Shown piece after piece: positions 20,428 to 50,844 of a stretch of DNA of 64,000 nucleotides. Where the stretch lies: positions 21,885 to 85,884 of the forward strand of contig JAQURC010000004.1 in NCBI GenBank assembly GCA_028715785.1, read 5' to 3'. The translations under genes were made by a program, and so were the position numbers. Origin of the DNA: Candidatus Omnitrophota bacterium (lineage in GTDB: Bacteria > Omnitrophota > Gorgyraeia > Gygaellales > Profunditerraquicolaceae). Under the pieces are notes generated by a model, which was given only the letters and a program-made list of their open reading frames with translations, searched no databases and was not told the origin of the DNA. The first letter of the stretch is position 1. Each line of letters starts with the position of its first letter.

Positions 20428-20880
20428 TTAGGCAACTATGCCCAAAAGCATCAAGGTAAACGCCATGACCAGCAAGGCCACGGTTTCAGTCATCCCCAGG
20501 ACAACCAGATAGTTGCCAAAACCTTTGTCGGTCTCGCCCATGGCATCGCAGGCGCAGGCCGCGCATTTACCCTGCCATAAAGCGGAAAGCCCGATGGCCA
20601 AACCGGCAAATGCTCCGATGCTCCAGAGATATTGCCCTTTGTTGGCAATTGCCATTAATTGGCGCATAACAATCATCCCGTAAACCGTCTGGGTAAGCGG
20701 AGCGGCCACAAAAACCACCAGCATAAACGAAGCGGCTTTATTCTGCGCGAAGTTCTTTTTCCAGGCGCCGATAGCCGCCATTCCGGCAATCCCTGCCCCA
20801 CATCCGGAACCTACCGCCGCAAGCGCAAGCACTAAAATCGCGCCTAGATCCTTGAACTGCATTAACATATTATTCTCCAT
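20428..20880 (-). CDS. atpK: V/A-type ATPase proteolipid subunit K (c).
   Basis: Four TM helices with GAGIAGMAAIG and GLAIGLSALWQG. The essential Glu context (ETVAL) is present. Confidence 0.8.
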   Translation of the reverse strand: MENNMLMQFKDLGAILVLALAAVGSGCGAGIAGMAAIGAWKKNFAQNKAASFMLVVFVAAPLTQTVYGMIVMRQLMAIANKGQYLWSIGAFAGLAIGLSALWQGKCAACACDAMGETDKGFGNYLVVLGMTETVALLVMAFTLMLLGIVA

Positions 20881-20894
20881 AAATACGCTCCCCT

Positions 20895-22661: not shown

Positions 22662-23275
22662 ACCGCTCCTCCCGCAAAAACAGCCTCTTCGATCTTTCGC
22701 TTGGCGATTTTACTGCGGCCTACGGCGTTAGCCATCTGGTCACCGATATAGATCTTAATCAGACGGATATTTTCTTCGGCAAGCGGGATCTTGACTTTCT
22801 CAAAAAGGTTGACTCTTTGCGTAGTGATACGCAGCTCATGCCTTAAGATAGCAATGCCTTCTTCGGCCAGCGCTACCTCTTTATTCAAAATAAAAATTTC
22901 CCTGAAGGCCTCAACCGCAAAATCAAGCCACAGGGGCATAAGGAATAAATCGTAATCCGGCGCGGCAAACTCTACCTTGTCCAATACCGGAATATCCACT
23001 CCGGCAATATTTTTAGGGTGGGTAATAATTTTTACCGGCTTTAAATATGTTTTCAAATCCACCAACGGGTCCGCAAGCAAGCCGGCCCAAAAAATAACTG
23101 CCTGCTTTTTTTTGGCTTGTGCCTGTTTTTTTATTTCAAGGAGGGAGTTCTGCTGCAGGATCTCCAGCTGTAACTGCTGTTTCTTTAGCTGCAAAGTAGG
23201 CAGATAGCGTTGAAATTGTTTTAAGGCATCGCGCTGCCTTTTTAATTCGCCTTTGGTAAATTTTATTTTTGCCAT
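22658..23275 (-). CDS. atpD: V/A-type ATPase subunit D.
   Basis: [36 protein letters not shown] matches subunit D. The start is chosen at 23275, and the ATG overlaps the atpB stop by 1 nt. Confidence 0.8.
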   Translation of the reverse strand: MAKIKFTKGELKRQRDALKQFQRYLPTLQLKKQQLQLEILQQNSLLEIKKQAQAKKKQAVIFWAGLLADPLVDLKTYLKPVKIITHPKNIAGVDIPVLDKVEFAAPDYDLFLMPLWLDFAVEAFREIFILNKEVALAEEGIAILRHELRITTQRVNLFEKVKIPLAEENIRLIKIYIGDQMANAVGRSKIAKRKIEEAVFAGGAV

Positions 23276-24570
23276 TAGTCTCTCGGCCAGAACTGCTCGA
23301 TAATCGAAAGTTTTATCCCGGTTTCTTCGGGAGAAAAACAATCCGCCAAGATTTGCCAGCCCAAATCCAGGGCTTTTTCCAGGGGGATATTTACCTTAAG
23401 CGACATCATCTTCTCTTCAAAAAACAAGCCGTATTTAAGCAATTTCTTGTCCCAGGCGCTCATCTGAAACCCCATTGACTGCTTCTCCAGGGTTTGGCGG
23501 TAATCGGCAAAAAGCTGGATCATGGTATCCATAATTGTGCGGTGGTCAGGGCGGGTTTTGCCATTTACCTGCTGTTTTAAGCGGCTCAATGACCCAAACG
23601 GCTCGATAACCGCGGATTTCAAGTAAAATTGGCCTTCGGTGATATAACCCGTATTATCCGGGACCGGATGGGTAACATCGTCTCCGGGCATGGTCGTAGC
23701 CGCAAGAATGGTAATTGAGCCTGCCCCTTCAAAATCAACCGCTTTTTCATACCGTGCAGCCAGTTGGCTGTAAAGATCCCCGGGGTAGCCGCGGTTAGAA
23801 GGGACCTGCTCCATGGTAATCGAAATTTCTTTCAAGGAATCGGCAAAATTAGTCATATCGGTTAACAAAACCAACACCCTTTTGCCTTTTAAAGCGAAAT
23901 CCTCGGCCACGGCTAAGCTAATATCCGGCACAAGTAAACACTCAACGGTGGGGTCAGACGCAGTGTGGATAAAAAATACGCAGCGGGAAAGGGCTCCGTG
24001 GGCGTTTAATGTTTCCCGAAAGAAAAGAAAGTCGTCGTATTTTAAGCCCATGCCGCCTAAAATAATAATATCCACCTCCGCCTGGATGGCAATGCGCGCC
24101 AAAAGTTCATTATAGGGCTCTCCGGCGATTGAAAAAACAGGGAGTTTTTGCGATTCTACCAGCGAATTAAAAACATCAATCATCGGAATACCGGTGCGGA
24201 TAATTTTATTGGGAATAATCCTCTTGACCGGATTTACGGAAGGAGCGCCGATAGCCGTTAGGTTCTCAGAAAGTATTGGCCCGCGGTCCAGGGGCAGGCC
24301 GCTGCCGTTAAATATGCGGCCCAATAGATTTTCTCCGGTTGCCACGCGCATCGGATGGCCCAAGAACCTTACCTTGTCTTGCGTTGATATCCCGCGGCTG
24401 CCGGCAAAAACCTGTAAAGATACTTTTGTCGAATCGATGCGGATAACCTGGGCTAAAGAAACGCTCCGGCCGCAGGTAATCTGGGCGATATCCAGGTACC
24501 CCACCCCCTGGGCCTCCACGGTAATCACATCCCCGGCGATTTGAATAATATTAGTGTAGGCTTTTTGCAT
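23275..24570 (-). CDS. atpB: V/A-type ATPase subunit B (non-catalytic).
   Basis: A/B-family alpha-beta fold without an intact P-loop: [18 protein letters not shown]. 431 aa. Confidence 0.85.
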
Positions 24571-24572
24571 AT

Positions 24573-26315
24573 TTACCCGGCTTTCACGATTTTTTTCTCT
24601 TCCAAAAATATTGTTATTTTTTCCTCTATCTCTTCAAATTCCTTACTGTTATATTCGGCGGAGTTCCAGCCGCGAAAAAGCTGGCGCAAGGCTTGAAAAA
24701 AATGCAGGGCGCTTTCTTTATTTTCCAATTTATACTCTGAATCCAATATATCGCAAATAAAGGCGAACAAATAAACCTGACGTTCCTGGGAGGTGGCCTC
24801 ATCAACCGGATCAAAGGCATTCTGCTGCAGATAAATAAAATCAAAAAACTCTCCCTTTAAATACTCGATGTAATCGTTTAATGAAGTGCCTTCTTCGCCG
24901 ATGACTTTCATCATCTGCGCGATTTCGTGGCTGCGCTGTAAAATCAAGCGGCCTTTTTCCTGGTGTTTGGGGTCAACGATGCTCTTATATTTACTCCAGC
25001 TGATTAGCGGGTCGATGGCCGGATATTTCCTGGCATCGGAACGTTCGCGCGAAAGCCCGTGAAAAGCGCCGACTACTTTTAGCGTTGCCTGGGTAACCGG
25101 CTCCTCAAAATTTCCTCCGGCAGGGCTGACCGTGCCGCCTATAGTTACCGAGCCGGTGGCGCCCCCATAAAGCCTGACTACCCCGGCGCGTTCATAAAAA
25201 GAGGCAATCCGCGACTCCAGGTATGCCGGAAACGCTTCTTCTCCCGGGATCTCCTCGAGGCGGCCGCTCATCTCGCGCATCGCCTGGGCCCAGCGGGAAG
25301 TAGAATCGGCCAGCAACAAAATATTCAGGCCCATCTGGCGGTAGTATTCCGCGATGGTCACTGCGGTATAGACGCTGGATTCACGGGCGGCAACCGGCAT
25401 CGAGCTGGTATTGCAGATAATTACCGTGCGGTCAATCAGCGGTTTATCCGTGCGCGGATCAATCAACTCGGGAAAAGTCTTTAATGTTTCCACAACTTCT
25501 CCGGCGCGCTCTCCGCAGGCGGCGATAATGACGATATCCACTTCCGCGTGGCGGCTGGTCAACTGCTGTAAAACGGTTTTTCCCGCGCCAAATGGGCCGG
25601 GGATACAATATGTGCCTCCGCGGGCCACCGGAAAAAGCGAATCGATCAGGCGCATTTTTGTGACCAGCGGTTCATGCGGCCTTATTTTTTCCGCATAAGC
25701 ACGAATCGGTATTTTTACCGGCCAGCTCTGTTGTAAAAAAACATCGTGGGTATGCCCGGCAAAATCCCTAAGCTGGGCAATCGGCTGTTTTAAATTATAC
25801 TTGCCGGCCGGGGCAATGCTTACTACCTCAAGAGAGCCGGTAAGCATAAAAGGAGCCATAATATAATGTTTAAAAAATTTCTCAGGGACAAAACCCAGCC
25901 AGCTGCCGGCTAAAACCTTATCTTTTGTTTTTACCAAAGGAGTAAAATCCCACTGCGCCTGGTTGCTTAAGGCTTCAAGATAGACGCCGCGTTTTAAGAA
26001 AAACCCGCATTTTTGAGCCAGCGCCGGCAGGGGGTTCTGCAGGCCGTCAAAGATTTGACCCAACAGGCCCGGGCCAAGCTCTACGGAAAGAAGTTGATTG
26101 CTAAACTCAACCGGCTCCCCGACTTTTAAGCCTTGCGTACTTTCATAAACCTGCATCTCTGCCTGGTTGGCGCGCACGCGGATAACTTCCGCTTTTAAGC
26201 GCTCCTGGCCGGCAATGATATAGGCAACCTCATTTTGGATGATATTGCCCTCAACCTGGGCGGTAACCATGTTGGCATTAACTTTAATCACACTCCCGGT
26301 TCTCTTTTTTTCCAT
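24573..26315 (-). CDS. atpA: V/A-type ATPase catalytic subunit A.
   Basis: P-loop GPFGAGKT and the non-homologous insert typical of the A subunit. 580 aa. Confidence 0.9.
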
Positions 26316-26317
26316 AA

Positions 26318-26851
26318 TTAATTTAAAAATACCGCGTCAAATAAATGTTCTTTATCCGCCTTCTCCGCCTCATACCAGCGTTCCAGGATTTTAAGCTTTA
26401 ACGCGTAAATCAATAAAAAATCAAAATCAAAATAATGCCCAAAAGACAGCCGCTCTAAAAAATCCCACCTCTCCTGGTCCAGGATCTTTTCCGCTTCCAA
26501 CACATTGGCGCTGTGCCGATGCGCAGCCAAAGCCATATGGCCGATATGGAGTTCCTGGCGGTCAGGAAGCCGGATAAATTTCGCGGGGTCTATCTTTTTG
26601 CCCCTGGCCCTAACGCGGGCCAGTTCATTTCTCAAGGTTACTTCAAAGTTCACCCATTTCCTCAGGCATCCGGTTGCGCTGGAATTCAAAAAATCAATGT
26701 CTTGATAACAGGCGTTACGTAGAATCTCAATCTCTGTTCCCGGAATAAAACTATTGCACTTAGCAAAAAAAACCTCCAGACCAAACGGCGGCTTGGCGGA
26801 AAAATTAAGCATCGGCAGGCTGGAGATCAAATATGTATAATAAGAGGCCAT
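26318..26851 (-). CDS. Hypothetical protein conserved in V-ATPase operons (DUF2764-like; family assignment uncertain).
   Basis: 177 aa, positioned between the E and A subunit genes as in the Chlamydia/Spirochaete-type ntp operons. No recognisable catalytic motif. Confidence 0.4.
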   Translation of the reverse strand: MASYYTYLISSLPMLNFSAKPPFGLEVFFAKCNSFIPGTEIEILRNACYQDIDFLNSSATGCLRKWVNFEVTLRNELARVRARGKKIDPAKFIRLPDRQELHIGHMALAAHRHSANVLEAEKILDQERWDFLERLSFGHYFDFDFLLIYALKLKILERWYEAEKADKEHLFDAVFLN

Positions 26852-27454
26852 TTATCCGGGTTTTAAAATTTTATCTAATTCGGGTTTTAGCGAGCCGGTT
26901 ATATACTCGATCAGTGCAGTATCGCTAAAATCAAAGATGGATTTGCCCGCGTCAAAACTGATTATAAATCCGCGATCAATGCCGTCGCTAGACTTTAAAA
27001 TTATTTGTTTCTTGGTTTCCTGCGCCAAATGTTTGAGAAACCCCTTCTCTAATTTTTCTTTATCTTTTTCATTTAAGGAAACAATGATTTCAGAGCCCAA
27101 AGAAAGCGGCGCGCTTTTAATCAAGGCCCCGATAATTTCGGCCAGTTCTTCTGCGGCTAAAGCCCGGCCAAGTTCGGCCCTGGTCAAATTACCCAGCATT
27201 GCATTGACCTCTTTCCTTAAACTGATTAACAAATCCCGGCCGGCCTGTTTTAAAGAAGCGTTTGTAGACTCACCCAGTTTTTCTGCCTGGGTATTTGCAT
27301 TTTCAATAATTCGCTTGGCTTCTGATTTTGCCGCGCTAATTATTTCCTTGGCCTGCGAATCCGCTGCGGCTTTTATTTGGGCTGCCTGCTCCTGGGCGGC
27401 CTTTACCCCTTCCCGCTGGATCTTTGCGATCAAATCTTTAATTTCCTGCGCCAT
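26852..27454 (-). CDS. atpE: V/A-type ATPase subunit E.
   Basis: An Ala/Glu/Lys-rich N-terminal helix MAQEIKDLIAKIQREGVKAAQEQAAQIKAAAD and a globular C-terminus. 200 aa. Confidence 0.75.
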   Translation of the reverse strand: MAQEIKDLIAKIQREGVKAAQEQAAQIKAAADSQAKEIISAAKSEAKRIIENANTQAEKLGESTNASLKQAGRDLLISLRKEVNAMLGNLTRAELGRALAAEELAEIIGALIKSAPLSLGSEIIVSLNEKDKEKLEKGFLKHLAQETKKQIILKSSDGIDRGFIISFDAGKSIFDFSDTALIEYITGSLKPELDKILKPG

Positions 27455-28133
27455 ATAAATCTCCCAAAAGTTCTTCTGCCTTTTTAAGCGGATCCGCTGC
27501 TTTTAAAATCGGCCGGCCGATAACTAAAAAATTACTCCCGGCGCCTACCGCTTCTTTTACCGTAGCTGTCCGCTTCTGGTCGTCACCAACGGAATTATTC
27601 GTTCTTATCCCCGGAGTAACCATTAAAAAACTCTTTTTTATTTTTTTCCGTAAAGCCGCTGCCTCGCGCGCAGAGCAGACAACTCCATCTAAACCGGAGG
27701 CTAACCCCTGTCGCGCTAATTTTAAAACTTCTCCTGAACTGGCTTTTTGGCTGGTTAAAACCGTAACTCCGATTAACAGCGGCCTTTTTAACCCGGATAC
27801 TTTCGCCAGATGCCTGGCGGATGCTGCGGCCGCCTCGATCATTTCTTTGCCGCCGGAAATATGCAAGGTAAGCATTTTTACCTTCAGGCGCACAGCTTCT
27901 GCCACGGCGCTTGAAACAGTATTAGGGATATCCAAATATTTAAGGTCTAAAAAAACTTCCGCGCCTTTCTGATGTATTAACTCAACAACCTTTGGCCCAT
28001 AAGCAGTAAAAAGCTGGCTTCCGACCTTAAAGATTTTTATTTTGGGATAAAGCTTGTTCACAAAATCCGCGGCACTTTCCAGAGTATCTACGTCTAAGGC
28101 AAGTATGATTTGAGGTTTATTTAATCTTGGCAC
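27438..28133 (-). CDS. pyrF: Orotidine 5'-phosphate decarboxylase.
   Basis: IILALDV and the active-site region KVGSQLFTAYGPKVV...FLDLKYLDIPNTV. Confidence 0.85.
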   Translation of the reverse strand: MPRLNKPQIILALDVDTLESAADFVNKLYPKIKIFKVGSQLFTAYGPKVVELIHQKGAEVFLDLKYLDIPNTVSSAVAEAVRLKVKMLTLHISGGKEMIEAAAASARHLAKVSGLKRPLLIGVTVLTSQKASSGEVLKLARQGLASGLDGVVCSAREAAALRKKIKKSFLMVTPGIRTNNSVGDDQKRTATVKEAVGAGSNFLVIGRPILKAADPLKKAEELLGDLYGAGN

Positions 28134-29056
28134 GCTCTTAATTTTCCCGTAAGCTGGCTTAAATCCGGAATATTATTGCCCGCCATATATTTCTCTAATC
28201 CGGAGATAATTTCCAGGCTTACTCCGGGATTAATAAAGTTTGCCGTCCCGATACTGATCGCGCTGGCGCCGGCAAGCAAAAACTCCAAAGCGCTTTCCGT
28301 GTCTATTATACCACCCATGCCGATAATGGGAATCTTAATCTTATTATAAGCCTCCCAGACCATCTTAACGGCTACGGGCCGGATTGCCGGCCCGCTTAAA
28401 CCGCCCACCCAAGAACCTAGTTTAGGAATACGTTTATTTACATCTATACTCATACCGCCAAGGGTGTTGATTAAGGCCAGCGCATCGCTGCCGGCATCCT
28501 GGGCCGCCTGGGCAATTTCACTGATTGAAGTTACATTGGGAGAAAGTTTGGTGATTAAGCATTTTTGTGTGAATTTACGTACCGAGCCGATCACTTCAAA
28601 GGTATCTTTGGTATCCTGAGAGATAAGTTTATTTTTCTGCAGATTGGGGCAGGATATATTTAATTCGATTGCGGACACTTCATTTATTTTATCCAGCTGC
28701 TCAATCAGAACAAGAAATTCATCCGGGCTTTCTTCGGCGGCAATACTTACAATAAGCGGAACAGCCAGTTTCTTCAGGAAAGGAAGTTTCTCTCTGATAA
28801 ATTTATCGATGCCGGGATTTTCCAGGCCGATAGAATTAAGCATGCCGGCAGGGGTTTCACATGTCCGGGGAGGAAGATTCCCGTAGCGGGGCTTGACAGT
28901 AATGGTCTTGGTAACAATGGCTCCCAATTTTTTCAGGTCGATAAAATCCTTGAACTCTTCGGCATAACCGAATGTGCCGCTGGCCGCCATTACGGGATTC
29001 TTCAGCTTAAGCTTGCCTATGCTCAAGCTTAAATCGGGCTTGATCCGTTTTACCAT
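28121..29056 (-). CDS. pyrD: Dihydroorotate dehydrogenase (class 1B catalytic subunit).
   Basis: NPVMAASGTFGY, GAIVTKTIT, NISCPN and GGI..GMGGI motifs. Confidence 0.85.
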   Translation of the reverse strand: MVKRIKPDLSLSIGKLKLKNPVMAASGTFGYAEEFKDFIDLKKLGAIVTKTITVKPRYGNLPPRTCETPAGMLNSIGLENPGIDKFIREKLPFLKKLAVPLIVSIAAEESPDEFLVLIEQLDKINEVSAIELNISCPNLQKNKLISQDTKDTFEVIGSVRKFTQKCLITKLSPNVTSISEIAQAAQDAGSDALALINTLGGMSIDVNKRIPKLGSWVGGLSGPAIRPVAVKMVWEAYNKIKIPIIGMGGIIDTESALEFLLAGASAISIGTANFINPGVSLEIISGLEKYMAGNNIPDLSQLTGKLRACQD

Positions 29057-29847
29057 ATCAACTCCTGGCTTAAAAAAACCGGGCCGTCCTTACAAACTCT
29101 TTGGTAACCGTCTTTAGTAGAGACAACGCAGCCTAAACAAGCCCCGATCCCGCAGGCCATATGCTCCTCTAAAGAAAGCTGCGCATTAATTTTATTTTCC
29201 CGGGCAATTTCACTTACCGCCTTTAACATCGCGCGCGGCCCGCAGGTATAGATGACCGATGACCGGTGACCGGTGACCGATAGCTGCTGTTTTAACAAAT
29301 CTGTAACTTTGCCTCTAAACCCAACTGAGCCGTCGTCGGTAGCCAACCTCACGGTGCATCCCAAAGCCTTAAACTCTTGCGCGCAAAGAACCTGCTTTTT
29401 TGTCTTGGCTCCAATTAATATAATGGTGTCATTGCCAGCCCCGGAGGGGCGAAGCAATCTTTGCGCAAGAAAAACCAGCGGGGCAACCCCCATGCCGCCG
29501 GCAACTAAGATATTTTTTCCTGCTTTTGCTTTAATTGCCCCCCTGTAATCAAACCCATTACCCAGCGGGCCGATAATATCCAGAAGCTCACCGGGTTTTC
29601 TTTGGGACAAAACCTGCGTGCCTGCTCCGACAACTTCATAAAAAAGCTTAACTTTTCTGCCCTTTACCCTATGGACGCTGATCGGCCTTCTTAATAACGG
29701 CTCAAGCCCATTGTTAACTTTAATATTCACGAATTGTCCCGGTAAGGCATTTTTGGCAATTACGCCTGATTCAAATTCTAAATGCCAATAATTACCACTG
29801 AATCTTTTATTGGAGATTATCTTGGTTTTTATCTGCGCTATTTTCAT
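29050..29847 (-). CDS. pyrK: Dihydroorotate dehydrogenase electron-transfer subunit (FAD / 2Fe-2S).
   Basis: Ferredoxin-reductase-like fold, C-terminal Cys cluster ACGIGACLGCVV. Confidence 0.8.
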   Translation of the reverse strand: MKIAQIKTKIISNKRFSGNYWHLEFESGVIAKNALPGQFVNIKVNNGLEPLLRRPISVHRVKGRKVKLFYEVVGAGTQVLSQRKPGELLDIIGPLGNGFDYRGAIKAKAGKNILVAGGMGVAPLVFLAQRLLRPSGAGNDTIILIGAKTKKQVLCAQEFKALGCTVRLATDDGSVGFRGKVTDLLKQQLSVTGHRSSVIYTCGPRAMLKAVSEIARENKINAQLSLEEHMACGIGACLGCVVSTKDGYQRVCKDGPVFLSQELIW

Positions 29848-30529
29848 TATTTTGCCTGGTCCATTTACTAAGTAAAATTACCAAGATTACAAATAAAATA
29901 AAAGTTAAGAAAAGCCACAGGGATTGTTGAAGATAAACCCTAAATCCTTCCACCCTGATATCCTCCCAAGATTCTACCAGTAAAACAAGCAAAAGAAGCG
30001 TTATAATCGAGCCGACCTCCTTCTTAAACCAGCTTAACTTTACGGGAAGATAGCTGCTGATATCTAATTTTATCATGCTCGATAATGCAGGAAAAATGCG
30101 CGGGACCTTCCTGCAGTATTCTTCGTATGCCCCCGGAAATATCTTCAAAAGCTTTTTTTCTTCTTTATAGATCAGCAGTAAATAGCGGATAATAAAAACT
30201 GTAATAAAAATTGCTGCCGCCCACCATTGAAATACCGCCAGGACCACCCCTAAACCGATTAGAAATATCCCCAGATACATCGGGTTGCGCACAATTTGAT
30301 ACGGCCCGCCCTGGATTAATGCCTGGCTTTGCTCGGAATACTCTGCTTTATACCCGCGGGCGGAAACCCTGATGATTTGCCCCAAAAGAATAAGCGCAAA
30401 GCCTAAAAGCTCTATTATTTCTTCCCCAGGGTCATTTGAATAGTTACGGATAAAAACTTTGGGGAAAAACGCGACTACAATGACGGCGCAGACCATAATT
30501 ATCCCGTTAATCTTAAGGCGTTTTTTCAT
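29807..30529 (-). CDS. Isoprenylcysteine carboxyl methyltransferase (ICMT/PEMT)-family membrane methyltransferase.
   Basis: LIQGGPYQIVRNPMYLGIFLIGLG matches the family core. It has three additional C-terminal TM helices. Confidence 0.6.
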   Translation of the reverse strand: MKKRLKINGIIMVCAVIVVAFFPKVFIRNYSNDPGEEIIELLGFALILLGQIIRVSARGYKAEYSEQSQALIQGGPYQIVRNPMYLGIFLIGLGVVLAVFQWWAAAIFITVFIIRYLLLIYKEEKKLLKIFPGAYEEYCRKVPRIFPALSSMIKLDISSYLPVKLSWFKKEVGSIITLLLLVLLVESWEDIRVEGFRVYLQQSLWLFLTFILFVILVILLSKWTRQNNENSADKNQDNLQ

Positions 30530-30532
30530 GGA

Positions 30533-31333
30533 TTATTTTTGGCACTTACTACAAAAATAAGTGCCTCTTCCTCCCTGCGTAATTCTTTTTATCGGGCTGC
30601 GGCAGACAAAACACGGCTTGCCCTGCCGGCCGTAAACCTGATGAAAACGCGCGTAATCCCCGGGTTTGCCCGAAAGGCGCACATAATCATCTACCGAAGA
30701 GCCGCCATGTTTAATTGCGCTGTTTAATACATCTTTTATTTCTTTATATAAAGCTTGTTTTTCTTTCTCGGTTAAACTCGATGCGGCCCGGCGCGGCTCA
30801 ATCCTGGACCGGAATAAGATTTCCGCCGCGTAAAGATTGCCGATCCCGGAAATAAAAGACTGGTCCATAAGCAGAGGCTTGATCTTGGTTTTCTTTTTAG
30901 AAAGCATATCCTTAAAATCGGCGAAAGTCAAATCAAATGGCTCAGGCCCCAGCCCCTGGACAAATTTTAATTTTTTCCAGTCGCTAACCAGGCGCAGTTC
31001 TCCAAACAGGCGCTGGTCATTAAAATCTAAAGTTGTGCCGTCGAAAAAATGGATTGCCAGCCTGCTTGCGCTGCTGCCTCCGGGATAGACTAATTGCCCG
31101 GTCATCTTTAAGTGCACGGCCAAATACCGGCCATTGGATAATTCAAAAATTAACAGTTTTGCCCGGCGGAAAATATTTTTTATCGTCTGCCCTTCCAAAG
31201 ATCGCTTAAATTCTGCTGGCGCCGGAAAACGCACAACCTTAGGATTATGCAGGCAAACCTCGGTAATTTTTTTACCCGGGATTACCTGCTGCAGCTCGCG
31301 CTTAATTGTCTCTACTTCCGGCAGTTCCGGCAT
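30533..31333 (-). CDS. mutM: Formamidopyrimidine-DNA glycosylase.
   Basis: N-terminal MPELPEVE and C-terminal zinc finger CFVCRSPIKRITQGGRGTYFCSKCQ. Confidence 0.9.
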   Translation of the reverse strand: MPELPEVETIKRELQQVIPGKKITEVCLHNPKVVRFPAPAEFKRSLEGQTIKNIFRRAKLLIFELSNGRYLAVHLKMTGQLVYPGGSSASRLAIHFFDGTTLDFNDQRLFGELRLVSDWKKLKFVQGLGPEPFDLTFADFKDMLSKKKTKIKPLLMDQSFISGIGNLYAAEILFRSRIEPRRAASSLTEKEKQALYKEIKDVLNSAIKHGGSSVDDYVRLSGKPGDYARFHQVYGRQGKPCFVCRSPIKRITQGGRGTYFCSKCQK

Positions 31334-31334
31334 A

Positions 31335-32903
31335 TTAATTTATTTTCCTGCCTTTTATCTTGTAATATTCCTGCAACGGTTTCACTTTGAGTTTTTTCTT
31401 TAACAATACTTCTATGCCGCTGACCGTGGCCTGGGCCCCAAAGATGGTCGTGGTGTAAGGGATACCGTGCAAAATAACCTGTGAGCGTATTTTTACCTCA
31501 TCAAGCCGCGGGATCCTTCCCGAAGGGGTATTGATTACCAGTTGGATCTTAGCCTCCTTCATTAAATCCAGAACATTGGGATTTCCCTCTGAAATTTTTG
31601 GTAAAACTTTTGAGGCAATCTTGCTTTTGACTAGCGCCGCAGCTGTTCCGCTGGAAGCATAGATCTTAAACCCCAAATCTTTAAGTTTTTTGGCGATTAA
31701 AATAATATTCCTTTTGTCGCGGTCATTAACGGAAATAAAGACGTTGCCTTTTTTAGGTAGTTTTTGCCCGGCAGCCAGCTGACTCTTGATATAGGCCTGG
31801 CCAAAATCCGCGTCAATCCCCATCACCTCTCCGGTAGATTTCATCTCCGGCCCCAGAATTATATCTACCCCCGGAAAACGGTTAAAAGGAAAAACCGATT
31901 CCTTGATTGCCACGTGCCGGGGAATAATTTCTTTGGTAAAACCTAATTCTTTTAATTTTTTCCCTAACATTACCTTGGTTGCCAATTTTGCCAGGGGCAC
32001 TCCGATTACCTTGGAAACAAATGGCACAGTACGTGAAGCGCGGGGATTAACCTCTAAAACGTAAACTTTTCCATCCTTTACCGCGTACTGCACATTCATC
32101 AGGCCGACTACATGCAATTCACTGGCCATATGTACCGTCGCCAGGCGGATTTGTTTTAATATTTCTGCCGATAGCGTATAGGTAGGAAGGGACATTGCCG
32201 CGTCCCCGGAATGCACACCGGCCTGCTCGATATGCTCCATAATCCCGCCGATTATAAAATCCCTGCCGTCGCCGACTAAATCCACATCGACCTCTATGGC
32301 ATCTTCCAAAAATTTATCAACCAGAATCGGATGCTCTCCGGAAACCGCTGCCGCCGCTTTAATAAACTTTTCTAAAACCTGTTCATCATAAGCAATTTCC
32401 ATCGCCCTGCCGCCTAATACATAGGAAGGCCGCACCAATACCGGATAACCGATCCTGTTAGCGACCTCTTTTGCCTCCTCAAAAGTAAACGCCGTCCCAT
32501 TAACCGGCTGTAAAAGGCCGAGTTTATCGAGCATTTGCTTAAAACGTTTGCGGTCTTCGGCAATATCAATGCTGTCGGCGCTTGTCCCTAAAAGCTTAAT
32601 TCCCGCTTTAAGCAAAGGAACCGCCAGATTAAGCGGGGTCTGCCCCCCAAACTGCACAATTACTCCAAGCGGTTTTTCTCTTTCAATGATGTTCATAATG
32701 TCTTCGAAAGTAAGCGGCTCAAAATAAAGCCGGTCAGAGGTATCATAATCAGTTGAGACTGTTTCAGGGTTGCAGTTAACCATAATACTTTCTATGCCTT
32801 CTTCTTTTAAAGCGTACGCCGCGTGGCAGCAGCAATAATCGAATTCAATCCCCTGACCAATACGATTGGGCCCACCGCCCAAAATAATTACTTTTTTTCT
32901 CAT
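31335..32903 (-). CDS. carB: Carbamoyl-phosphate synthase large subunit, C-terminal half only (second ATP-grasp module plus MGS-like domain), present as a stand-alone gene.
   Basis: MRKKVIILGGGPNRIGQGIEFDYCCCHA matches the start of the second CarB repeat. The MGS-like domain is at the C-terminus. No N-terminal half and no carA are adjacent. Confidence 0.8.
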   Translation of the reverse strand: MRKKVIILGGGPNRIGQGIEFDYCCCHAAYALKEEGIESIMVNCNPETVSTDYDTSDRLYFEPLTFEDIMNIIEREKPLGVIVQFGGQTPLNLAVPLLKAGIKLLGTSADSIDIAEDRKRFKQMLDKLGLLQPVNGTAFTFEEAKEVANRIGYPVLVRPSYVLGGRAMEIAYDEQVLEKFIKAAAAVSGEHPILVDKFLEDAIEVDVDLVGDGRDFIIGGIMEHIEQAGVHSGDAAMSLPTYTLSAEILKQIRLATVHMASELHVVGLMNVQYAVKDGKVYVLEVNPRASRTVPFVSKVIGVPLAKLATKVMLGKKLKELGFTKEIIPRHVAIKESVFPFNRFPGVDIILGPEMKSTGEVMGIDADFGQAYIKSQLAAGQKLPKKGNVFISVNDRDKRNIILIAKKLKDLGFKIYASSGTAAALVKSKIASKVLPKISEGNPNVLDLMKEAKIQLVINTPSGRIPRLDEVKIRSQVILHGIPYTTTIFGAQATVSGIEVLLKKKLKVKPLQEYYKIKGRKIN

Positions 32904-32974
32904 TTTACTCCACTTCCTTTAGTTTTTTACCTAATTTATGGGATAATTACTCCACTTCTAAATTATAGGTTATT

Positions 32975-33047
32975 TGCGCCTGGCAGGAATTGAACCTGCA
33001 CCACTAGCTTCGGAGGCTAGTGCGCTATCCGTTGCGCTACAGGCGCG
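32975..33047 (-). tRNA. tRNA-Arg (anticodon CCG), CCA not encoded.
   Basis: Reverse complement: GCGCCTGTAGCGCAACGGATAGCGCACTAGCCTCCGAAGCTAGTGGTGCAGGTTCAATTCCTGCCAGGCGCA. The anticodon loop is CUCCGAA. Confidence 0.8.
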
Positions 33048-34289
33048 TTAAAACAAACTTAATTGCTCTTCGCTCTTCTCCTGCTGCCCATGGTCATCAA
33101 ATATGGAGATGATGCCATATTCGCCGTCAAAACCTGCCTTGATATTAACTTTGCCGGCGCGCACGCGTAAAATGCCTTCCACAACTTTAGGAGGCAGGCT
33201 TTTGAGCAACTCCTCTTTTGAAGCTTCGAGTAAAATATTAAATTCAGTGCCAAATTTAGCTAAATAACCGCGATAGTCTCTTTCAACATTTATCGAAGCC
33301 TTGCCTATACCTTTGGCTTCAGCAATGATTTCGGCAAAAGGAATTAAATTTTTAAAAGGAATGGCGTTTTCAGGCTTAAATCCTTCCGGTCGGTCGGCTA
33401 ATTTCTCAACGCGGTTAACCACCCCAACGGTAACCGGCTTGCCGCACTTAGGGCATTTCCCATTATGCTCTCTGGTTTCCTGGGGTGACATGCGCATACC
33501 GCAGAGGCGGTGCCCGTCAAAATGGTATTTACCCTCCTCGGGGAAAAATTCAATGGTGTATAAAAATCTGGTCTTGTCTTTGGTTTTTAAAACCTCGCGG
33601 ATAGTTTTGTAATCTAACTGGCAATTAAAAACATTGGCCTCCCGGCCGATCTTCTGCGGCGAATGCGAATCGCTGTTGGAAATCAACGTAAACCTGTCCA
33701 GGGCGCTGAGGCGCCAATTCATCGCCGGATCGCTGGATAAACCAGTTTCCAGGGCAAATATTTTGGGAGTTTCTTTTTCAAAACAATCTTCGATCTTATC
33801 GAAGCCGGACATCGAACCAAACACGCTAAACCAGGGGGTCCAGATATGGCCCGGGATTACCATGCAATTTTCATCAATATCAAAAACAATGCGCGCAAGT
33901 TCGTCGGCGGCAATCCCGACAATCGGCCGGCCGTCAGAAGATAAATTCGCCCCGCGGCGGCTAAGCGCGTTATTAATTTTATCAACCACCGCAAAAGACG
34001 GAGCGAAAATAAGGTTATGGATCCGGTACCCTCTGCCTCCCTTAGAATAGATACTGCTGATTTCCGCGGTCAGCATAAAATACACGCCGGCATATTTGAA
34101 TAACCCATTTCCGCAATCTTCCAATGTGTGCTTTAATTCCTCCAGCCATAGATGATGAGTAAAATCACCCGTACCCATTAAAGTAATCCCTTTTAATTTG
34201 GCCCACTCCGCTAGATGCTTAATATCCATATCGCGGCTGGTTGCCCGGGAGTATTTAGAGTGGATGTGAAAATCGGCGATAAACTCCAT
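33048..34289 (-). CDS. PHP-domain nuclease resembling endonuclease Q (EndoQ), with a C4 zinc finger.
   Basis: PHP motif FIADFHIHSKYSRATS, further His/Asp metal ligands, a CPKCGK...C zinc ribbon and a C-terminal helical domain. 413 aa. Confidence 0.55.
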   Translation of the reverse strand: MEFIADFHIHSKYSRATSRDMDIKHLAEWAKLKGITLMGTGDFTHHLWLEELKHTLEDCGNGLFKYAGVYFMLTAEISSIYSKGGRGYRIHNLIFAPSFAVVDKINNALSRRGANLSSDGRPIVGIAADELARIVFDIDENCMVIPGHIWTPWFSVFGSMSGFDKIEDCFEKETPKIFALETGLSSDPAMNWRLSALDRFTLISNSDSHSPQKIGREANVFNCQLDYKTIREVLKTKDKTRFLYTIEFFPEEGKYHFDGHRLCGMRMSPQETREHNGKCPKCGKPVTVGVVNRVEKLADRPEGFKPENAIPFKNLIPFAEIIAEAKGIGKASINVERDYRGYLAKFGTEFNILLEASKEELLKSLPPKVVEGILRVRAGKVNIKAGFDGEYGIISIFDDHGQQEKSEEQLSLF

Positions 34290-34291
34290 AT

Positions 34292-35566
34292 TTACCTTTT
34301 ATAAACTACCTGTCCTTTGCAGATCGTATAATCTACCGCGCCTTTTAGAGAGTAACCAAGAAACGCGGAATTCTTGGATTTAGAAACTAAATTTTGTTTA
34401 TCAACTACCCAGGGCTCTTGATCAGAAACGATAATTATATCCGCAGGCGTCCCTTTAGCTAACCTGCCTGCCTCTAAACCCAGGATTTTAGCGGGGTTTA
34501 AACAGTATTTTTCAACCAGCCCCGGCCAATCCAAAACCCCTTTGGCTAATAATTCATTTATGCCGGCGGAAAGCTCGGTCTCCAGCCCCACTACCCCGAA
34601 TTCGGCGCGCTCAAACTCAATATCTTTTTCATTCTCAGTGTGCGGGGCATGGTCGGAGGCAATCACATCGATTGTGCCGTCTTTTAACCCCTGCTTTATC
34701 GCCATAAGATCTTTCTTGCTTCTTAAGGGCGGATTCATTTTCATATTCGTATCATATCCTAAAAGGGCGTCTTCGGTAAGGGTAAAATAGTGCGGGGCTG
34801 TTTCACAGGTTACCTTAATGCCTGTTTTTTTCGCCTGAGCAATTATCTCCACCGACTCCCGGCAGCTCACATGGGCAATATGCACCGCGGAGGCAGCCTT
34901 CTTGGCCAATTCGATATCCCTGCGAACCCGTTTATACTCTGATTCGTTAGAAATGCCGCGCAAACCCAGGCGCGTAGAATTAAAACCCAAATTGATTACC
35001 CCTTTTCCCGAAAGTTTTTTATCCTCAGAATGGCAGATCGTTAAAAGCCCGGCTTGTTTTGCTTTTTTGAGCGCCTCCAACATCAACTCATCGCTATCCA
35101 CCGAACATCCATCATCGGAGATAGCATAAACGCCGCTTTTCTTTAGCGCGGCGATATCACTTAACTCTTCACCTAAACGTCCTTTGGTAATTGTTCCGCA
35201 AATAAGCACATTCACCTTCGCGTCTTTCTTGATTATTTCTTGCAACAACCTGACGCCCTCCGGGCAATCCATCGCCGGCTGGGTGTTGGGCATGGCTAAA
35301 ACCGTGGTTACTCCGCCTTTGGCAGCAGCCAGCGTGGCAGTAGCTACTGTTTCCTTGTCTTCCCTGCCGGGCTGGCGTAAATGCACATGCATATCGATAA
35401 TGCCCGGGGCGACAATCTTATTATCGGCATCGATTATGGTTGCCTCCTGAGCTTGAATATTTTTGGCAACTTTGGATATTTTATTTCCTTCAACCAGGAT
35501 ATCCAGCTTTGCGTCAATTTTATTTTCCGGGTCAATTACCCTGCCGCCTTTAATCAATATGCTCAT
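34292..35566 (-). CDS. pyrC: Dihydroorotase.
   Basis: DMHVHLRQPG, a carboxylated-Lys region and DHAPH. 424 aa. Confidence 0.85.
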   Translation of the reverse strand: MSILIKGGRVIDPENKIDAKLDILVEGNKISKVAKNIQAQEATIIDADNKIVAPGIIDMHVHLRQPGREDKETVATATLAAAKGGVTTVLAMPNTQPAMDCPEGVRLLQEIIKKDAKVNVLICGTITKGRLGEELSDIAALKKSGVYAISDDGCSVDSDELMLEALKKAKQAGLLTICHSEDKKLSGKGVINLGFNSTRLGLRGISNESEYKRVRRDIELAKKAASAVHIAHVSCRESVEIIAQAKKTGIKVTCETAPHYFTLTEDALLGYDTNMKMNPPLRSKKDLMAIKQGLKDGTIDVIASDHAPHTENEKDIEFERAEFGVVGLETELSAGINELLAKGVLDWPGLVEKYCLNPAKILGLEAGRLAKGTPADIIIVSDQEPWVVDKQNLVSKSKNSAFLGYSLKGAVDYTICKGQVVYKR

Positions 35567-36494
35567 TTTTTGCTTCCCTTGCCTGGCTGACTAAAAATAA
35601 AACCGCCATTCTTACGGCAATGCCGTTAGTTACCTGCTCCAGGATTACTGAATTTTTCCCGTCGGCTACTTCGCTGGACATCTCAATTCCGCGGTTAATC
35701 GGTCCGGGGTGCATCACCACAACATCTTTTTTGGCTTTAGCCAGTCTTTCTTCGGTAATTCCAAACTTTTTGAAATAGTCCAGCTGCTCGGGAAAAGCTG
35801 TGCCTTCATCACGCTCAAACTGCATTCTTAAAACATTCACCGCGTCGGCTTTTTTTAAAACCTCGTCGATATTGCTGGAGGTTTTTGCTCCGGTTAGTTC
35901 GATTCCCACGGGAAGCAGCATCTCCGGCGCGCAAAGCGTAACGTTGGCCCCTAATTTGGTCAGGCCCCAGATATTTGAACGGGCAACCCGGGAATGGGCG
36001 ATGTCGCCGACAATGGCGACATTTAAACCTTTTATTTTCCCTAATTTTTCTTTTAAGGTAAAGATATCCAGCAACGCCTGGGTAGGATGTTCATGCCAAC
36101 CGTCTCCGGCATTGACCACGCTGATATCCAGGGCCCGGGCGAGCATATTGGCCGCGCCGGAATAATTATGCCGCATAATAATTATGTCGGCTTTCAGCGC
36201 CTGGATGTTTTTGCCCGTATCGATTAAAGTTTCGCCTTTGCGCACGCTGGATGTTTCGGTGGCGATATTAATCACATCGGCAGAAAGCCTTTTGGCGGCC
36301 ACCTCAAAAGATACGCGGGTGCGCGTCGATGGTTCGTAAAAAAGATTCACCGCGGTTTTGCCGCGTAAGGCGGGGACTTTTTTGATCTCGCGGGTGGAAA
36401 CTTCTTTAAAAGATTCGGCGGTATCTAAGATAAGTTCAATCTCTTCCGGCGATAAATATTCCAGACCCAAAAGATCCTTCTTGGTCCAAGCCAT
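35550..36494 (-). CDS. pyrB: Aspartate carbamoyltransferase catalytic subunit.
   Basis: STRTR, HPTQ and HPGP motifs. The start is chosen at MAWTKKD (36494), overlapping the pyrR stop by 1 nt. Confidence 0.85.
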   Translation of the reverse strand: MAWTKKDLLGLEYLSPEEIELILDTAESFKEVSTREIKKVPALRGKTAVNLFYEPSTRTRVSFEVAAKRLSADVINIATETSSVRKGETLIDTGKNIQALKADIIIMRHNYSGAANMLARALDISVVNAGDGWHEHPTQALLDIFTLKEKLGKIKGLNVAIVGDIAHSRVARSNIWGLTKLGANVTLCAPEMLLPVGIELTGAKTSSNIDEVLKKADAVNVLRMQFERDEGTAFPEQLDYFKKFGITEERLAKAKKDVVVMHPGPINRGIEMSSEVADGKNSVILEQVTNGIAVRMAVLFLVSQAREAKNEHID

Positions 36495-37033
36495 TATTGC
36501 CTCTCCGCGATTAATACCTCTTCGCTGCCATCGGATTCTTGCAGGCACACTTCCACGGATTCTTTATTGGAAGTCGGGATATTTTTACCCACAAAATCCG
36601 CCCGGATGGGCAGTTCCCGGTGCCCGCGGTCAACCAAAACTGCCAGCTGGATTGATCTGGGCCGGCCCAAATCAATTAAGGCGTCCAATGCCGCCCGGAT
36701 GGTGCGGCCGGTGTAGAGCACATCATCAACTAAGACTAAATTCTTTTCGTTAATATCAAAATCTATTTCGGTTTTTCGCACCCTGGGCTGGCCGGAAGCC
36801 AAAGCCAAATCGTCGCGGTAAAGCGTAATATCCAAAGCGCCGGTTTCAATCTCTTTGCCCTCAATCTTTTTGATACATTCGGCAATGCGCTGGGCGATAT
36901 AAACCCCGCGGTTCCTAATGCCAATTACACATAGCCCCGCGGTGCCCTTGTTTTTTTCGATAATTTCATGGGCAATGCGGGTAATCGCCCGGCTAATTCC
37001 TTCCTGGTCTAGTATTTTAGCTTTTTCTTTCAT
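36494..37033 (-). CDS. pyrR: Bifunctional pyrimidine operon regulatory protein / uracil phosphoribosyltransferase PyrR.
   Basis: PRTase motif [16 protein letters not shown]. 179 aa, first gene of the pyr array. Confidence 0.85.
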
Positions 37034-37039
37034 CTATTT

Positions 37040-37140
37040 TCCTTCTATGCAAAAAAATACCCCTGGCTGTGTTTGCCAAGGGTTCATATTTTTTCCCGCT
37101 ATCTTACTCATCTTATTTGCCTTGCCAGCTTCTCTGAGCC
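37040..37140 (-). promoter_or_regulatory. Candidate PyrR-dependent transcription attenuator in the pyrR leader. It comprises a PyrR-binding-loop-like sequence and an intrinsic terminator.
   Basis: On the minus-strand RNA, GCUCAGAGAAGCUGGCAAGG (37121-37140) resembles the PyrR binding loop. It is followed by the hairpin CCCUUGGC-AAACACA-GCCAGGGG and UAUUUUUUU (37051-37082), directly before the pyrR RBS. Confidence 0.5.
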
Positions 37141-37167
37141 GGGCTTAAAGGTCCATTGATTGTCTTA

Positions 37168-37195
37168 AGTATACCACCGGCCATCTCTTTGTCAA
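37168..37195 (-). promoter_or_regulatory. Sigma-70-type promoter for the pyr operon.
   Basis: Minus strand: TTGACA, a 17-nt spacer, then TATACT. It overlaps the 3' end of rsmI. Confidence 0.5.
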
Positions 37196-46056: not shown

Positions 46057-46197
46057 TTTAGGCTCCCCTTTTATTTATATATATTTAAAAACTTAAAATA
46101 ACAGTAGTCATAAAGGGCCCGCATGTTTGTTTACAAAGACTTAACTTGTTGCAATATGTCTAATTATAACAAATATTGTAATCTAATAACCTGGGGA

Positions 46198-47535: not shown

Positions 47536-47842
47536 GATTTTCTGACGGGGATCTACAGAGTTAACAGTTTATGCACAACTTGCATAAATCTGTGGATAAA
47601 ACAGGCGACCCGATTTTCTCTAAACAGAGTTATTATAACAGAGAGCAAACTCCTTGCAAGAAAAAAAGATAAACGTGAGTTATTATACAACAATATGTTG
47701 AAGCGTCAATAAAAAACTTGACCTCCAAATAAATCTATGTTACAATTCACAAAAATCAAGAAGATCGCTTTCATAAATTGCGGCTGATTTTCCAAGCCCC
47801 GTGTTTTCCATGAAAACAGGGGGCAAAAAAAGGAGATCCTGA
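47536..47842. other. Putative oriC in the dnaA-rpmH intergenic spacer, which also holds the divergent promoters. A consensus DnaA box TGTGGATAA lies at 47591-47599 and a 1-mismatch box TTATGCACA at 47569-47577. AT-rich stretches flank them.
   Basis: Gene orientation flips exactly here. A perfect 9-mer DnaA box is present, and the spacer lies between dnaA and rpmH as in many bacteria. Confidence 0.55.
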
Positions 47843-47980
47843 ATGAAAAAAAATTTAAAGACACCCACAAATATTGTCGGTAAAAAACGCCACGGGTTCC
47901 GCAGTAAAATGGCTTCTAAATCCGGACGTAAACTTTTGGCCCGTCGACGGAGCAAGGGCAGAAAACGACTTTGCATTTAA
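47843..47980 (+). CDS. rpmH: 50S ribosomal protein L34.
   Basis: [45 protein letters not shown], with SD AGGAG 7 nt upstream. 45 aa, below the ORF-track cutoff. Confidence 0.9.
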
Positions 47981-48195
47981 AAGTAAACCGCCCGGTGCTT
48001 GCGTTAATAGCGCTATACCAGGGATATGTAAGGCCGGCTATTCCGGCATGTTGCCGTTTTGAACCCAGCTGTTCCGAGTACGCAAAACAGGCAATTTTAA
48101 AATACGGATTAACTAAAGGAGTATTTAAGGGGCTAATCAGGATATTGCGCTGCCATCCTTTTTCCGGGCGGTCGGGTTATGACCCCTTAATATAA
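47971..48195 (+). CDS. yidD: Membrane protein insertion efficiency factor YidD.
   Basis: [57 protein letters not shown]. The ORF as drawn begins at TTG and overlaps the rpmH end; the true start may be the downstream GTG. Confidence 0.8.
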
Positions 48196-48199
48196 AACT

Positions 48200-50828: not shown

Positions 50829-50844
50829 AAAAAGGAGCGGTTTA

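Follow-up and report, generated by a model that had tools for sequence, protein, structure and literature searches.

Why should the pyrimidine biosynthesis (pyr) genes of a bacterium enclose two DNA repair genes, a tRNA gene and only half of carB, the gene for the carbamoyl phosphate synthetase (CPS) large subunit? The question is raised by a 64,000-nucleotide stretch of DNA from a Candidatus Omnitrophota bacterium (GenBank assembly GCA_028715785.1, contig JAQURC010000004.1, positions 21,885 to 85,884), which was analysed as a whole and is referred to here as the window. The pyr cluster lies at window positions 27,438-37,195. We consider it rather likely that a Bacillus-type operon led by pyrR acquired endoQ, tRNA-Arg, fpg and a methyltransferase gene by serial insertion, as hitch-hikers, and lost carA and the N-terminal half of carB, leaving a half CarB that would be functional alone.

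The pyrimidine biosynthesis cluster

The ORF (open reading frame) and tRNA calls gave 10 ORFs and one tRNA gene in this region, every one of them on the minus strand. In the order of transcription, they are:

36494..37033, minus strand, pyrR, attenuator protein / uracil phosphoribosyltransferase, 179 aa (NF003549, 259 bits, cutoff 138)
35550..36494, minus strand, pyrB, aspartate carbamoyltransferase (Pfam/NCBIfam, 409 bits, cutoff 263)
34292..35566, minus strand, pyrC, dihydroorotase, 424 aa (TIGR00857, 405 bits, cutoff 279)
33048..34289, minus strand, endoQ, 413 aa, PHP, Zn-binding and C-terminal helical domains (match to Pyrococcus furiosus EndoQ, PfuEndoQ, 5zb8)
32975..33046, minus strand, tRNA-Arg, anticodon CCG (Rfam, 74.5 bits)
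31335..32903, minus strand, free-standing C-terminal half of CarB, 522 aa (NF003671, 762 bits, model positions 551-1057 only)
30533..31333, minus strand, fpg/mutM, 266 aa (NF002211, 289 bits, cutoff 212)
29807..30529, minus strand, PEMT/ICMT-superfamily membrane methyltransferase, 240 aa (PF04191, 45.8 bits, cutoff 25)
29050..29847, minus strand, pyrK, dihydroorotate dehydrogenase B electron-transfer subunit (Pfam DHODB Fe-S domain, 63.4, cutoff 23.9)
28121..29056, minus strand, pyrD, dihydroorotate dehydrogenase B catalytic subunit (Pfam/NCBIfam, 383 bits, cutoff 269)
27438..28133, minus strand, pyrF, orotidine monophosphate decarboxylase (Pfam/NCBIfam, 237 bits, cutoff 193)

The initial annotation, made from the sequence alone, had described this gene order on a single strand with short or overlapping junctions, and the gene calls agree with it throughout. 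Overlaps were found at pyrR/pyrB (1 nt, within TAATG), pyrB/pyrC (17 nt), PEMT/pyrK (41 nt), pyrK/pyrD (7 nt) and pyrD/pyrF (13 nt). The remaining junctions are gaps of 2 nt (pyrC/endoQ), 1 nt (endoQ stop codon/tRNA), 71 nt (tRNA/carB), 1 nt (carB/fpg) and 3 nt (fpg/PEMT). The pyrB ORF extends upstream to a GTG at 36548, and the ATG inside TAATG, which overlaps the pyrR stop codon, is the likely start. At the other end of the cluster, the 3' end of pyrF (stop codon 27440-27438) overlaps the start of a V-ATPase subunit E gene (27454) by 17 nt. No pyrE was found in the cluster or elsewhere within the 64-kb window.

The fpg call of the initial annotation also holds: the protein is a canonical Fpg, with the N-terminus MPELPEVE, an H2TH domain, a C-x2-C-x16-C-x2-C zinc finger and a score above the equivalog cutoff. 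The methyltransferase is less closely defined. Its sequence is hydrophobic and it matches PF04140 (ICMT) with 28.3 bits against a cutoff of 24, weaker than the PEMT match of 45.8, while all family-specific NCBIfam matches are sub-threshold (NF040696, 51.7 against a cutoff of 160). On these scores, the gene is assignable to the PEMT/ICMT superfamily only and not to ICMT proper. For PyrK, the NCBIfam equivalogs match over the full length but under their cutoffs (NF000798, 206.7 against 219; NF000799, 219.1 against 314). The same annotation had listed a carB C-half without interpreting it, and the match to the C-terminal portion of the CarB model bears out that description.

Conservation of the cluster in Omnitrophota

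Scanning GTDB at one genome per species gave 80 loci (cited, like those of the other scans, by L numbers) with EndoQ at 57-90 % identity, nearly all from Omnitrophota, and tBLASTn placed the window proteins in the same gene order throughout the EndoQ loci. Cluster elements were counted in the 46 species-level loci that reach from pyrC to pyrK/pyrD and enclose endoQ:

tRNA-Arg(CCG), 42/46 loci
carB C-half, 42/46 loci
fpg, 41/46 loci
PEMT, 35/46 loci
SLOG/LOG-like gene, 31/46 loci
YjbQ, 14/46 loci
flavodoxin-like gene, 13/46 loci
Mut7-C-like gene, 12/46 loci

The layout is beyond chance, as this gene order is repeated in 46 independent species-level loci. The spacing between pyrC and endoQ is about 0-10 nt in ~30 species. 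An independent metagenome sample, picked by the carB N-half, has endoQ between pyrC and carA in 9/9 Omnitrophota-like loci with sufficient flank. No pyr neighbours were present at the three EndoQ loci labelled non-Omnitrophota (one Zixibacteria, one Parcubacteria and one unclassified bacterium). Judged from gene order, the embedding of endoQ in the pyr operon is old and stable within the Omnitrophota clade.

The variety of passengers is illustrated by a relative on a 1.19-Mb contig, where the order is pyrR-pyrB-pyrC-Mut7C-endoQ-flavodoxin-SLOG-half carB-YjbQ-fpg-PEMT-pyrK-GT2-pyrD-pyrF; a GT2 (glycosyltransferase) gene is one of the passengers in L164. In many deeper lineages (L013, L023, L037, L042, L057, L068, L071, L164 and others), pyrC and endoQ are separated by the Mut7-C-like gene (~150 aa, PIN-like domain and Zn ribbon, PF01927), which is absent from the window, where the pyrC/endoQ gap is just 2 nt. 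In most relatives, tRNA-Arg is followed by a SLOG cluster-4 / LOG-like gene (PF18306, E=1.7e-39; L010 11372-11839 and 30 other loci), whose product may be a nucleotide-processing enzyme; this gene has been lost from the lineage of the window. Some loci with the typical Omnitrophota cluster (L008, L012, L021, L028 and others) come from metagenome-assembled genomes (MAGs) labelled Paceibacterota or 'uncultured Planctomycetales', where mis-binning or a wrong label is the probable cause.

The half carB is a derived state

The C-half protein aligns with residues 559-1058 of Escherichia coli CarB and comprises the carbamate-phosphorylation ATP-grasp domain and the MGS-like allosteric domain. Its gene has its own Shine-Dalgarno sequence (GGAAGTGGAG) and ATG. 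In relatives such as L010, endoQ is followed by tRNA-Arg, SLOG, carA (354 aa), a full-length carB (1,092 aa) and fpg. The window and ~30 other species, roughly half of those sampled, have neither carA nor the carB N-half at the locus. In these half loci, no carA or carB N-half remnant was detected at E<1e-3 in the spacer from the tRNA or SLOG gene to the start of the C-half, and none was found in the 64-kb window or within 10 kb in the other half loci. Stop-to-stop reading frames are bimodal, with 24 complete half genes (520-604 aa) and 23 complete full genes (1,060-1,132 aa), and none of the half-size genes is frameshifted. Half-size CarB forms >100 protein clusters at 90 % identity, on contigs of up to 1.19 Mb, and the NCBI label on these proteins is simply 'carbamoyl-phosphate synthase large subunit'. 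Two full-length carB copies are present in tandem downstream of endoQ in L056 (14854-21234).

Half and full states are interleaved both in a tree of the C-half and in a neighbour-joining tree of pyrB+pyrC+endoQ, used as a proxy for the species tree. Fitch parsimony gives at least 11 changes. As the proxy tree is poorly resolved and the intended outgroup is not monophyletic in it, event counts of 11-15 are upper-end estimates, and it is the junction types, with their linker remnants of unequal length, that set the firm minimum. In the window and in L001, L002 and L004, the half protein starts with M[KR]KKV right after the tRNA gene, with a GTGGAG Shine-Dalgarno sequence ahead. In L005, L072 and L059, the start is MQKKV and overlaps the SLOG stop codon. 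L027, L017, L008 and L046 keep 1, 3, 3 and 6 residues, respectively, of the linker between the halves of the full-length protein (..DEARPS|KNKK..), and other half proteins have unrelated N-terminal extensions. Since the junctions differ between lineages, several independent carB deletions are indicated. Alleles also appear to have spread by recombination, because L005, L072 and L059 share the MQKKV junction while the bodies of their C-halves group differently.

The ratio of non-synonymous to synonymous substitution rates (dN/dS) between pairs of half genes is 0.036 (L001/L002), 0.047 (L005/L072), 0.052 (L037/L042) and 0.11 (L032/L041), with dS unsaturated at 0.67-0.99. For the full-length pair L010/L012 it is 0.015. 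No variation was seen at E577, E604, R715, E761, H788, Q829, E841, N843, R848, M911 and E916, whether in half or in full proteins, and the carbamate-phosphorylation and allosteric residues R715, E761, H788, Q829, E841, N843, K954, T977, K993 and N1015 are kept; the numbers and roles are those of E. coli CarB. Twelve alignment columns are invariant in the full but variable in the half proteins and 102 show the reverse, two sets of sequences that differ in phylogenetic depth, and this column comparison revealed no relaxed constraint at former interface sites. These comparisons indicate that the half carB is a derived, recurrent deletion state under purifying selection and not an error.

Search for a partner or another source of carbamoyl phosphate

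Scanning metagenomes with a close carB N-half gave 80 loci, among which every closed ORF whose N-half reaches >=64 % identity runs into a C-half, save for one adjacent split or frameshift. In a protein search with the CarB N-half, the matches listed were all <1,000 aa and mostly contig-end partials, and there was no free-standing N-half protein (~550-620 aa) on a long contig among them. Three candidates for a split N-half were rejected: P0291 and P0316, of N-half size and on the longer contigs, are frameshifted calls in low-coverage sequence, and P0299 is a frameshifted stand-alone carAB.

Within the 64-kb window there is no carA, carB N-half or carbamate kinase gene, and no second carbamoyl phosphate source was seen. 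Stand-alone carA-carB loci (L092-L096, L099 and L107) were considered as the second copy of half-carB genomes, but could not be tied to such genomes; their neighbouring genes match neither the window nor the GTDB loci, and their CarA is nearest to that of the distant L079 lineage.

Identity of the EndoQ protein

The 413-aa protein has no match in the local copy of Pfam. Among PDB sequences, phmmer found P. furiosus EndoQ (5zb8) with E=1.2e-56, residues 5-398 aligning with 5-384 of 400, so that the alignment takes in the PHP, Zn-binding and C-terminal helical domains. The residues to check were taken from the EndoQ crystal-structure paper (PMC5961232). All metal ligands are present (H8, H10, E76, H91, H148, D207 and H209; in Pfu, H8, H10, E76, H84, H139, D193 and H195). 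In the lesion pocket and wedge, T151, W153, E181, G183, L184 and N205 are kept (Pfu T142, W144, E167, G169, L170 and N191), as is S185. The sole changed pocket residue is T182, in place of Pfu L168, which contributes via main-chain atoms (PMC5961232). The Zn ligands are H260, C263, C279 and C282 (HCCC), against C249, C252, C268 and C271 in Pfu, the first Cys being replaced by His. The metal, pocket and Zn residues are invariant across 26 homologues.

Fold matches were sought with Foldseek, starting from an AlphaFold model whose quality is moderate (pLDDT 67). The top matches were 5zb8 (E=8e-22, TM 0.64) and then 7k30, and the next best was a generic PHP phosphoesterase (E=2.5e-4, TM 0.31). Histidinol phosphatase and the PHP domain of Pol X, either of which might have been the better match, appear among neither the sequence nor the fold matches, and both identities were rejected. 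The full-length match to TIGR00375 scores 196.8 bits, under the curated cutoff of 326.6, and the NCBI name for the identical protein is 'endonuclease Q family protein'. With PfuEndoQ the best match in both sequence and predicted fold and all three domains present, the EndoQ assignment made in the initial annotation is confirmed.

The protein ends in QLSLF (window 33048-33065), a beta-clamp-binding pentapeptide that follows a variable charged linker, and a QLxLF-type terminus is found in 77/80 EndoQ homologues. The motif is the counterpart of the PIP box by which archaeal EndoQ binds PCNA. Clamp motifs in bacterial EndoQ homologues had previously been noted in a paper on archaeal PCNA (PMC4858679). 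The cognate clamp gene, dnaN, lies 12 kb from endoQ in the same window.

EndoQ of P. furiosus (PF1551; 5zb8/7k30), B. pumilus and B. subtilis shares with the window protein the three-domain architecture, all metal ligands and a C-terminal clamp-binding peptide. Relative to PfuEndoQ, the window protein is only ~30 % identical, has His rather than Cys as the first Zn ligand and carries the QLSLF beta-clamp motif in place of a PIP box. The further claim that a bacterial EndoQ is uncommon did not survive: bacterial homologues form 3,684 clusters at 50 % identity and >8,000 at 90 %, and a Bacillus EndoQ has been characterised (PMC5961232). Most of the top-scoring bacterial clusters at 50 % identity are EndoQ-UvrD helicase fusions of ~1,000-1,150 aa (P0124 and most of P0121-P0270), whereas the window protein stands alone. 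In P0124, EndoQ is N-terminal and is followed by UvrD-helicase (487-748) and UvrD_C; P0121 has a LAGLIDADG intein within EndoQ. The literature searched held no report of EndoQ in a pyr operon context.

Control region

Two features were found upstream of pyrR:

37168..37195, minus strand, promoter-like site, TTGACA, 16-nt spacer and TG-extended TATACT (11/12 consensus matches)
37050..37155, minus strand, candidate PyrR-binding leader RNA (RF00515, 38.8 bits, E=0.016), full model length and directly upstream of the pyrR ATG (37033)

The promoter-like site is a consensus match only, but has the top score in a 12-kb scan. Promoter and terminator scans gave no excess over shuffled sequence (for promoter-like sites, 21 observed against 19.2 in shuffles), and only the site coinciding with the PyrR leader was used. 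Rfam at the gathering threshold returned tRNAs only and the PyrR element emerged in E-value mode, its score in the window being below the gathering score of 54. The element contains a terminator hairpin (37083-37059) followed by a T-run, and RF00515 was found at the syntenic position in 3/3 relatives tested (L010, 47.7 bits; L057, 44.1 bits; L001, 40.9 bits). The leader is probably a PyrR attenuator.

The pyr cluster yielded neither a second PyrR site nor a convincing internal terminator. Because the junctions are tight or overlapping, the simplest reading is that the whole cluster is co-transcribed from the PyrR-controlled leader, and PyrR control would then extend to the passenger genes.

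Hitch-hiking or a link between repair and nucleotide supply

The history that we consider rather likely would start from an origin-proximal, leading-strand operon of the form pyrR-pyrB-pyrC-[carA-carB]-pyrK-pyrD-pyrF, most likely with a sigma-70-like promoter at its start, followed by a leader RNA with an intrinsic terminator, through which PyrR attenuation probably acts. Two slots, pyrC/carA and carB/pyrK, would have been filled by passengers during the evolution of the Omnitrophota, and these would now be stably inherited. Here, the passengers would be a clamp-tethered EndoQ (predicted to nick 5' of deoxyuridine (dU), deoxyinosine (dI) and apurinic/apyrimidinic sites), tRNA-Arg(CCG), Fpg and the PEMT/ICMT methyltransferase. 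RNase P and RNase Z would cut out the embedded tRNA, splitting the transcript in two. The half carB arose by deletion of carA and the N-terminal synthetase half, and in this genome the SLOG gene has gone too. The surviving half CarB is taken to be functional and most likely acts by itself, as a homodimer that would be a minimal ammonia-dependent CPS or else a carbamate-kinase-like enzyme feeding PyrB.

For the repair genes, two options had been offered at the outset, namely co-regulation of repair with the quality of the deoxynucleoside triphosphate pool and serial insertion into the operon. Serial insertion fits better, because in relatives Mut7-C, flavodoxin-like, SLOG, YjbQ and glycosyltransferase genes also occupy these slots. 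Co-regulation is plausible as far as transcription goes, but a functional pool-quality link is not favoured. EndoQ and Fpg would be hitch-hikers in a permissive, growth-expressed, origin-proximal operon rather than components of a circuit dedicated to pool quality. Omnitrophota genomes are 0.86-3.2 Mb in size (PMC10066038), and in a genome this compact gene adjacency alone is weak evidence of a functional link.

Several observations weigh against this history as a whole. Every PyrR RNA score (38.8-47.7) is under the Rfam gathering score. A tRNA under pyrimidine attenuation is odd, and there may therefore be an internal promoter. Selection for co-expression of endoQ and fpg may be acting, as they are the most persistent passengers and pyrC and endoQ are <10 nt apart in ~30 species. 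With respect to the half CarB, the stand-alone carA-carB loci described above do occur in related metagenomic contigs. Four loci (L040, L067, L070 and L073) keep pyrR, pyrB, pyrC, endoQ and pyrK/pyrD without a carB in the cluster, so some Omnitrophota must have another carbamoyl phosphate source, which half-carB genomes might share. In L073, endoQ is directly followed by pyrK. The carbamate-tunnel residues are invariant in the half proteins, which is also compatible with a surviving partner subunit.

The alternative that comes closest is adaptive coupling, in which EndoQ and Fpg are held under PyrR because the demand for repair tracks pyrimidine supply: low UMP/UTP would de-attenuate the operon while a dUTP/dTTP imbalance raises uracil in DNA, so that a dU-nicking enzyme and Fpg would be produced along with the pathway. 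That EndoQ acts on dU (PMC5961232) suits this idea, as do the presence of fpg in 41 of the 46 loci, a pyrC-endoQ adjacency that holds down to 57 % EndoQ identity with a spacing of 0-10 nt in ~30 species, and a PyrR leader upstream with no strong terminator seen inside the cluster. We nevertheless regard it as rather unlikely, since the slots also carry the unrelated Mut7-C, flavodoxin-like, SLOG, YjbQ, GT2, PEMT and tRNA genes, EndoQ homologues of other phyla lack pyr linkage, and the substrate of Fpg is oxidised purines and not damage to the pyrimidine pool.

What the half CarB may do

An autonomous half enzyme is favoured, with moderate confidence, by analogy with published work: isolated Aquifex CPS.A and CPS.B each perform both ATP-dependent partial reactions, and the 41-kDa CPS of Methanobrevibacter smithii is active as a dimer (PMC6022934). 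The more specific proposal is that the half CarB is a natural minimal CPS, a homodimer that needs neither CarA nor the N-half and uses ammonia or carbamate. Such an enzyme would have arisen in Omnitrophota repeatedly, by deletion, and would be the only supplier of carbamoyl phosphate to the adjacent pyrimidine pathway. This we put forward only tentatively, as possible but doubtful.

The protein might instead have been kept for another job, either the reverse reaction, making ATP from carbamoyl phosphate, or a regulatory or scaffold role with PyrB/PyrC via the allosteric domain, with carbamoyl phosphate supplied by a second carAB or a carbamate kinase. The four loci that retain pyrB, pyrC, pyrK, pyrD and pyrF without carB in the cluster point this way, as do the tandem carB copies of L056 and the existence of stand-alone carAB loci. 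Most Omnitrophota are also reported to have the nucleotide and all amino-acid pathways, so that carbamoyl phosphate is needed for arginine too (PMC10066038). However, all ATP-, metal- and carbamate-site residues are invariant, which argues that catalysis is kept, the location inside the pyr operon suits the supply of carbamoyl phosphate to PyrB, and the 64-kb window has no visible second source, making another job unlikely.

A split CPS of the Aquifex/Methanocaldococcus type, in which the C-half would join an N-half and a CarA encoded elsewhere in a three-subunit, glutamine-dependent enzyme, is less likely again. Split carB genes are on record (Ahuja 2001, cited in PMC6022934), the tunnel/interface-type residues E577, E604, R848 and E916 are invariant in the half proteins with constraint not relaxed, and the portion of this genome examined is 64 kb. 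Against this, >100 clusters contain the C-half only, with no free-standing N-half in the metagenome scan or among the protein matches listed, and each independent junction would demand a matching relocation of carA and the N-half.

Finally, it is highly improbable that misassembly or gene decay explains the half carB and that the EndoQ-like ORF encodes a generic PHP phosphoesterase: although the sequence is MAG-derived, TIGR00375 is under its cutoff (197 against 327) and the AlphaFold pLDDT is 67, the half state occurs in ~30 independent assemblies from different studies, without frameshifts and with dN/dS of 0.03-0.05, and EndoQ has a full-length PDB match (E=1e-56), all catalytic residues and the top fold match by 17 orders of magnitude.

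Replication-origin setting

In the window, dnaA (47535-46198) and dnaN (46056-44962), followed by gyrB and gyrA, are on the minus strand between 47.5 and 39.8 kb. The plus strand carries yidC, parA and parB from 48.2 kb, facing the dnaA side (origin region 44962-51702). GC skew switches sign at 46-48 kb. The gap between genes at 47536-48199 is likely to be oriC. From this gene layout and the skew switch, the pyr cluster is origin-proximal, ~10 kb from dnaA/oriC, and on the leading strand. It belongs to a single long run of co-directional genes that continues into the V-ATPase genes (20428-27454), namely those for E, a DUF2764 protein, A, B and D, an ORF of 588 aa without a Pfam match and a c/K-type proteolipid.

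Elsewhere in the window, genes for an HhH-GPD superfamily base-excision glycosylase and an RNase T/DnaQ-like exonuclease are found on the same strand ~18 kb downstream (9322-9960 and 11984-12571). A free-standing LAGLIDADG-type ORF of 224 aa (54521-55195) lies between tRNA-Cys and tRNA-Leu/tRNA-Val. The coding sequence for FeoB is divided over two ORFs that overlap, one for the G-domain (16904-16272) and one for the membrane part (16297-14840), and this may be a natural split or a frameshift.

Comparison with known systems

The pyr operon of Bacillus subtilis is pyrR-pyrP-pyrB-pyrC-pyrAA-pyrAB-pyrK-pyrD-pyrF-pyrE, controlled by PyrR attenuation. The window cluster resembles it in the order of the biosynthetic genes, with pyrR first, a predicted PyrR leader with terminator upstream and class 1B PyrK/PyrD. 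It differs in having no pyrP or pyrE, in the detection of one PyrR site rather than three, in the insertion of endoQ, tRNA-Arg, fpg and PEMT, in the deletion of carA and the carB N-half, and in the gapless run into V-ATPase genes.

Split and minimal CPSs (Aquifex aeolicus CPS.A/CPS.B/GLN, the M. smithii 41-kDa CPS and engineered CPS.B, the constructs of which are reportedly those of Guy and Evans) likewise have a synthetase half as its own polypeptide, with the same domain boundary (E. coli ~559). The window differs in that no partner N-half or CarA gene was found, and the deletions from a fused carB appear recent and repeated in one bacterial clade. Unlike the M. smithii enzyme, the half CarB, known from its sequence, keeps the allosteric MGS-like domain. 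It is not the two-half chain with a CarA partner of the usual CPS. Fpg shares the PELPEV motif, H2TH domain and C4 zinc finger with E. coli Fpg/MutM, and only its genomic context differs, inside a pyr operon and next to a PEMT-like gene. All of the components belong to known families and this is not a new kind of system.

Significance

An Omnitrophota clade with a PyrR-led operon that contains a clamp-tethered EndoQ, a tRNA and Fpg offers a natural case in which co-expression of repair with nucleotide synthesis can be set against hitch-hiking. The most interesting element of the locus is the half carB, as about half of the sampled species appear to have independently reduced carB to its C-half and held it under strong purifying selection. 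In practical terms, pathway-completeness calls that score the half gene as 'carB' are probably overstated in these MAGs. If the half works alone, nature has repeatedly made a half-size CPS of a sort so far represented mainly by engineered constructs and one archaeal enzyme. This would bear on the evolution of the two-step CPS and on carbamoyl phosphate supply in bacteria with reduced genomes. If the half CarB is also the minimal CPS suggested above, the duplication-fusion history that has been proposed for CPS would here be replayed backwards in living organisms.

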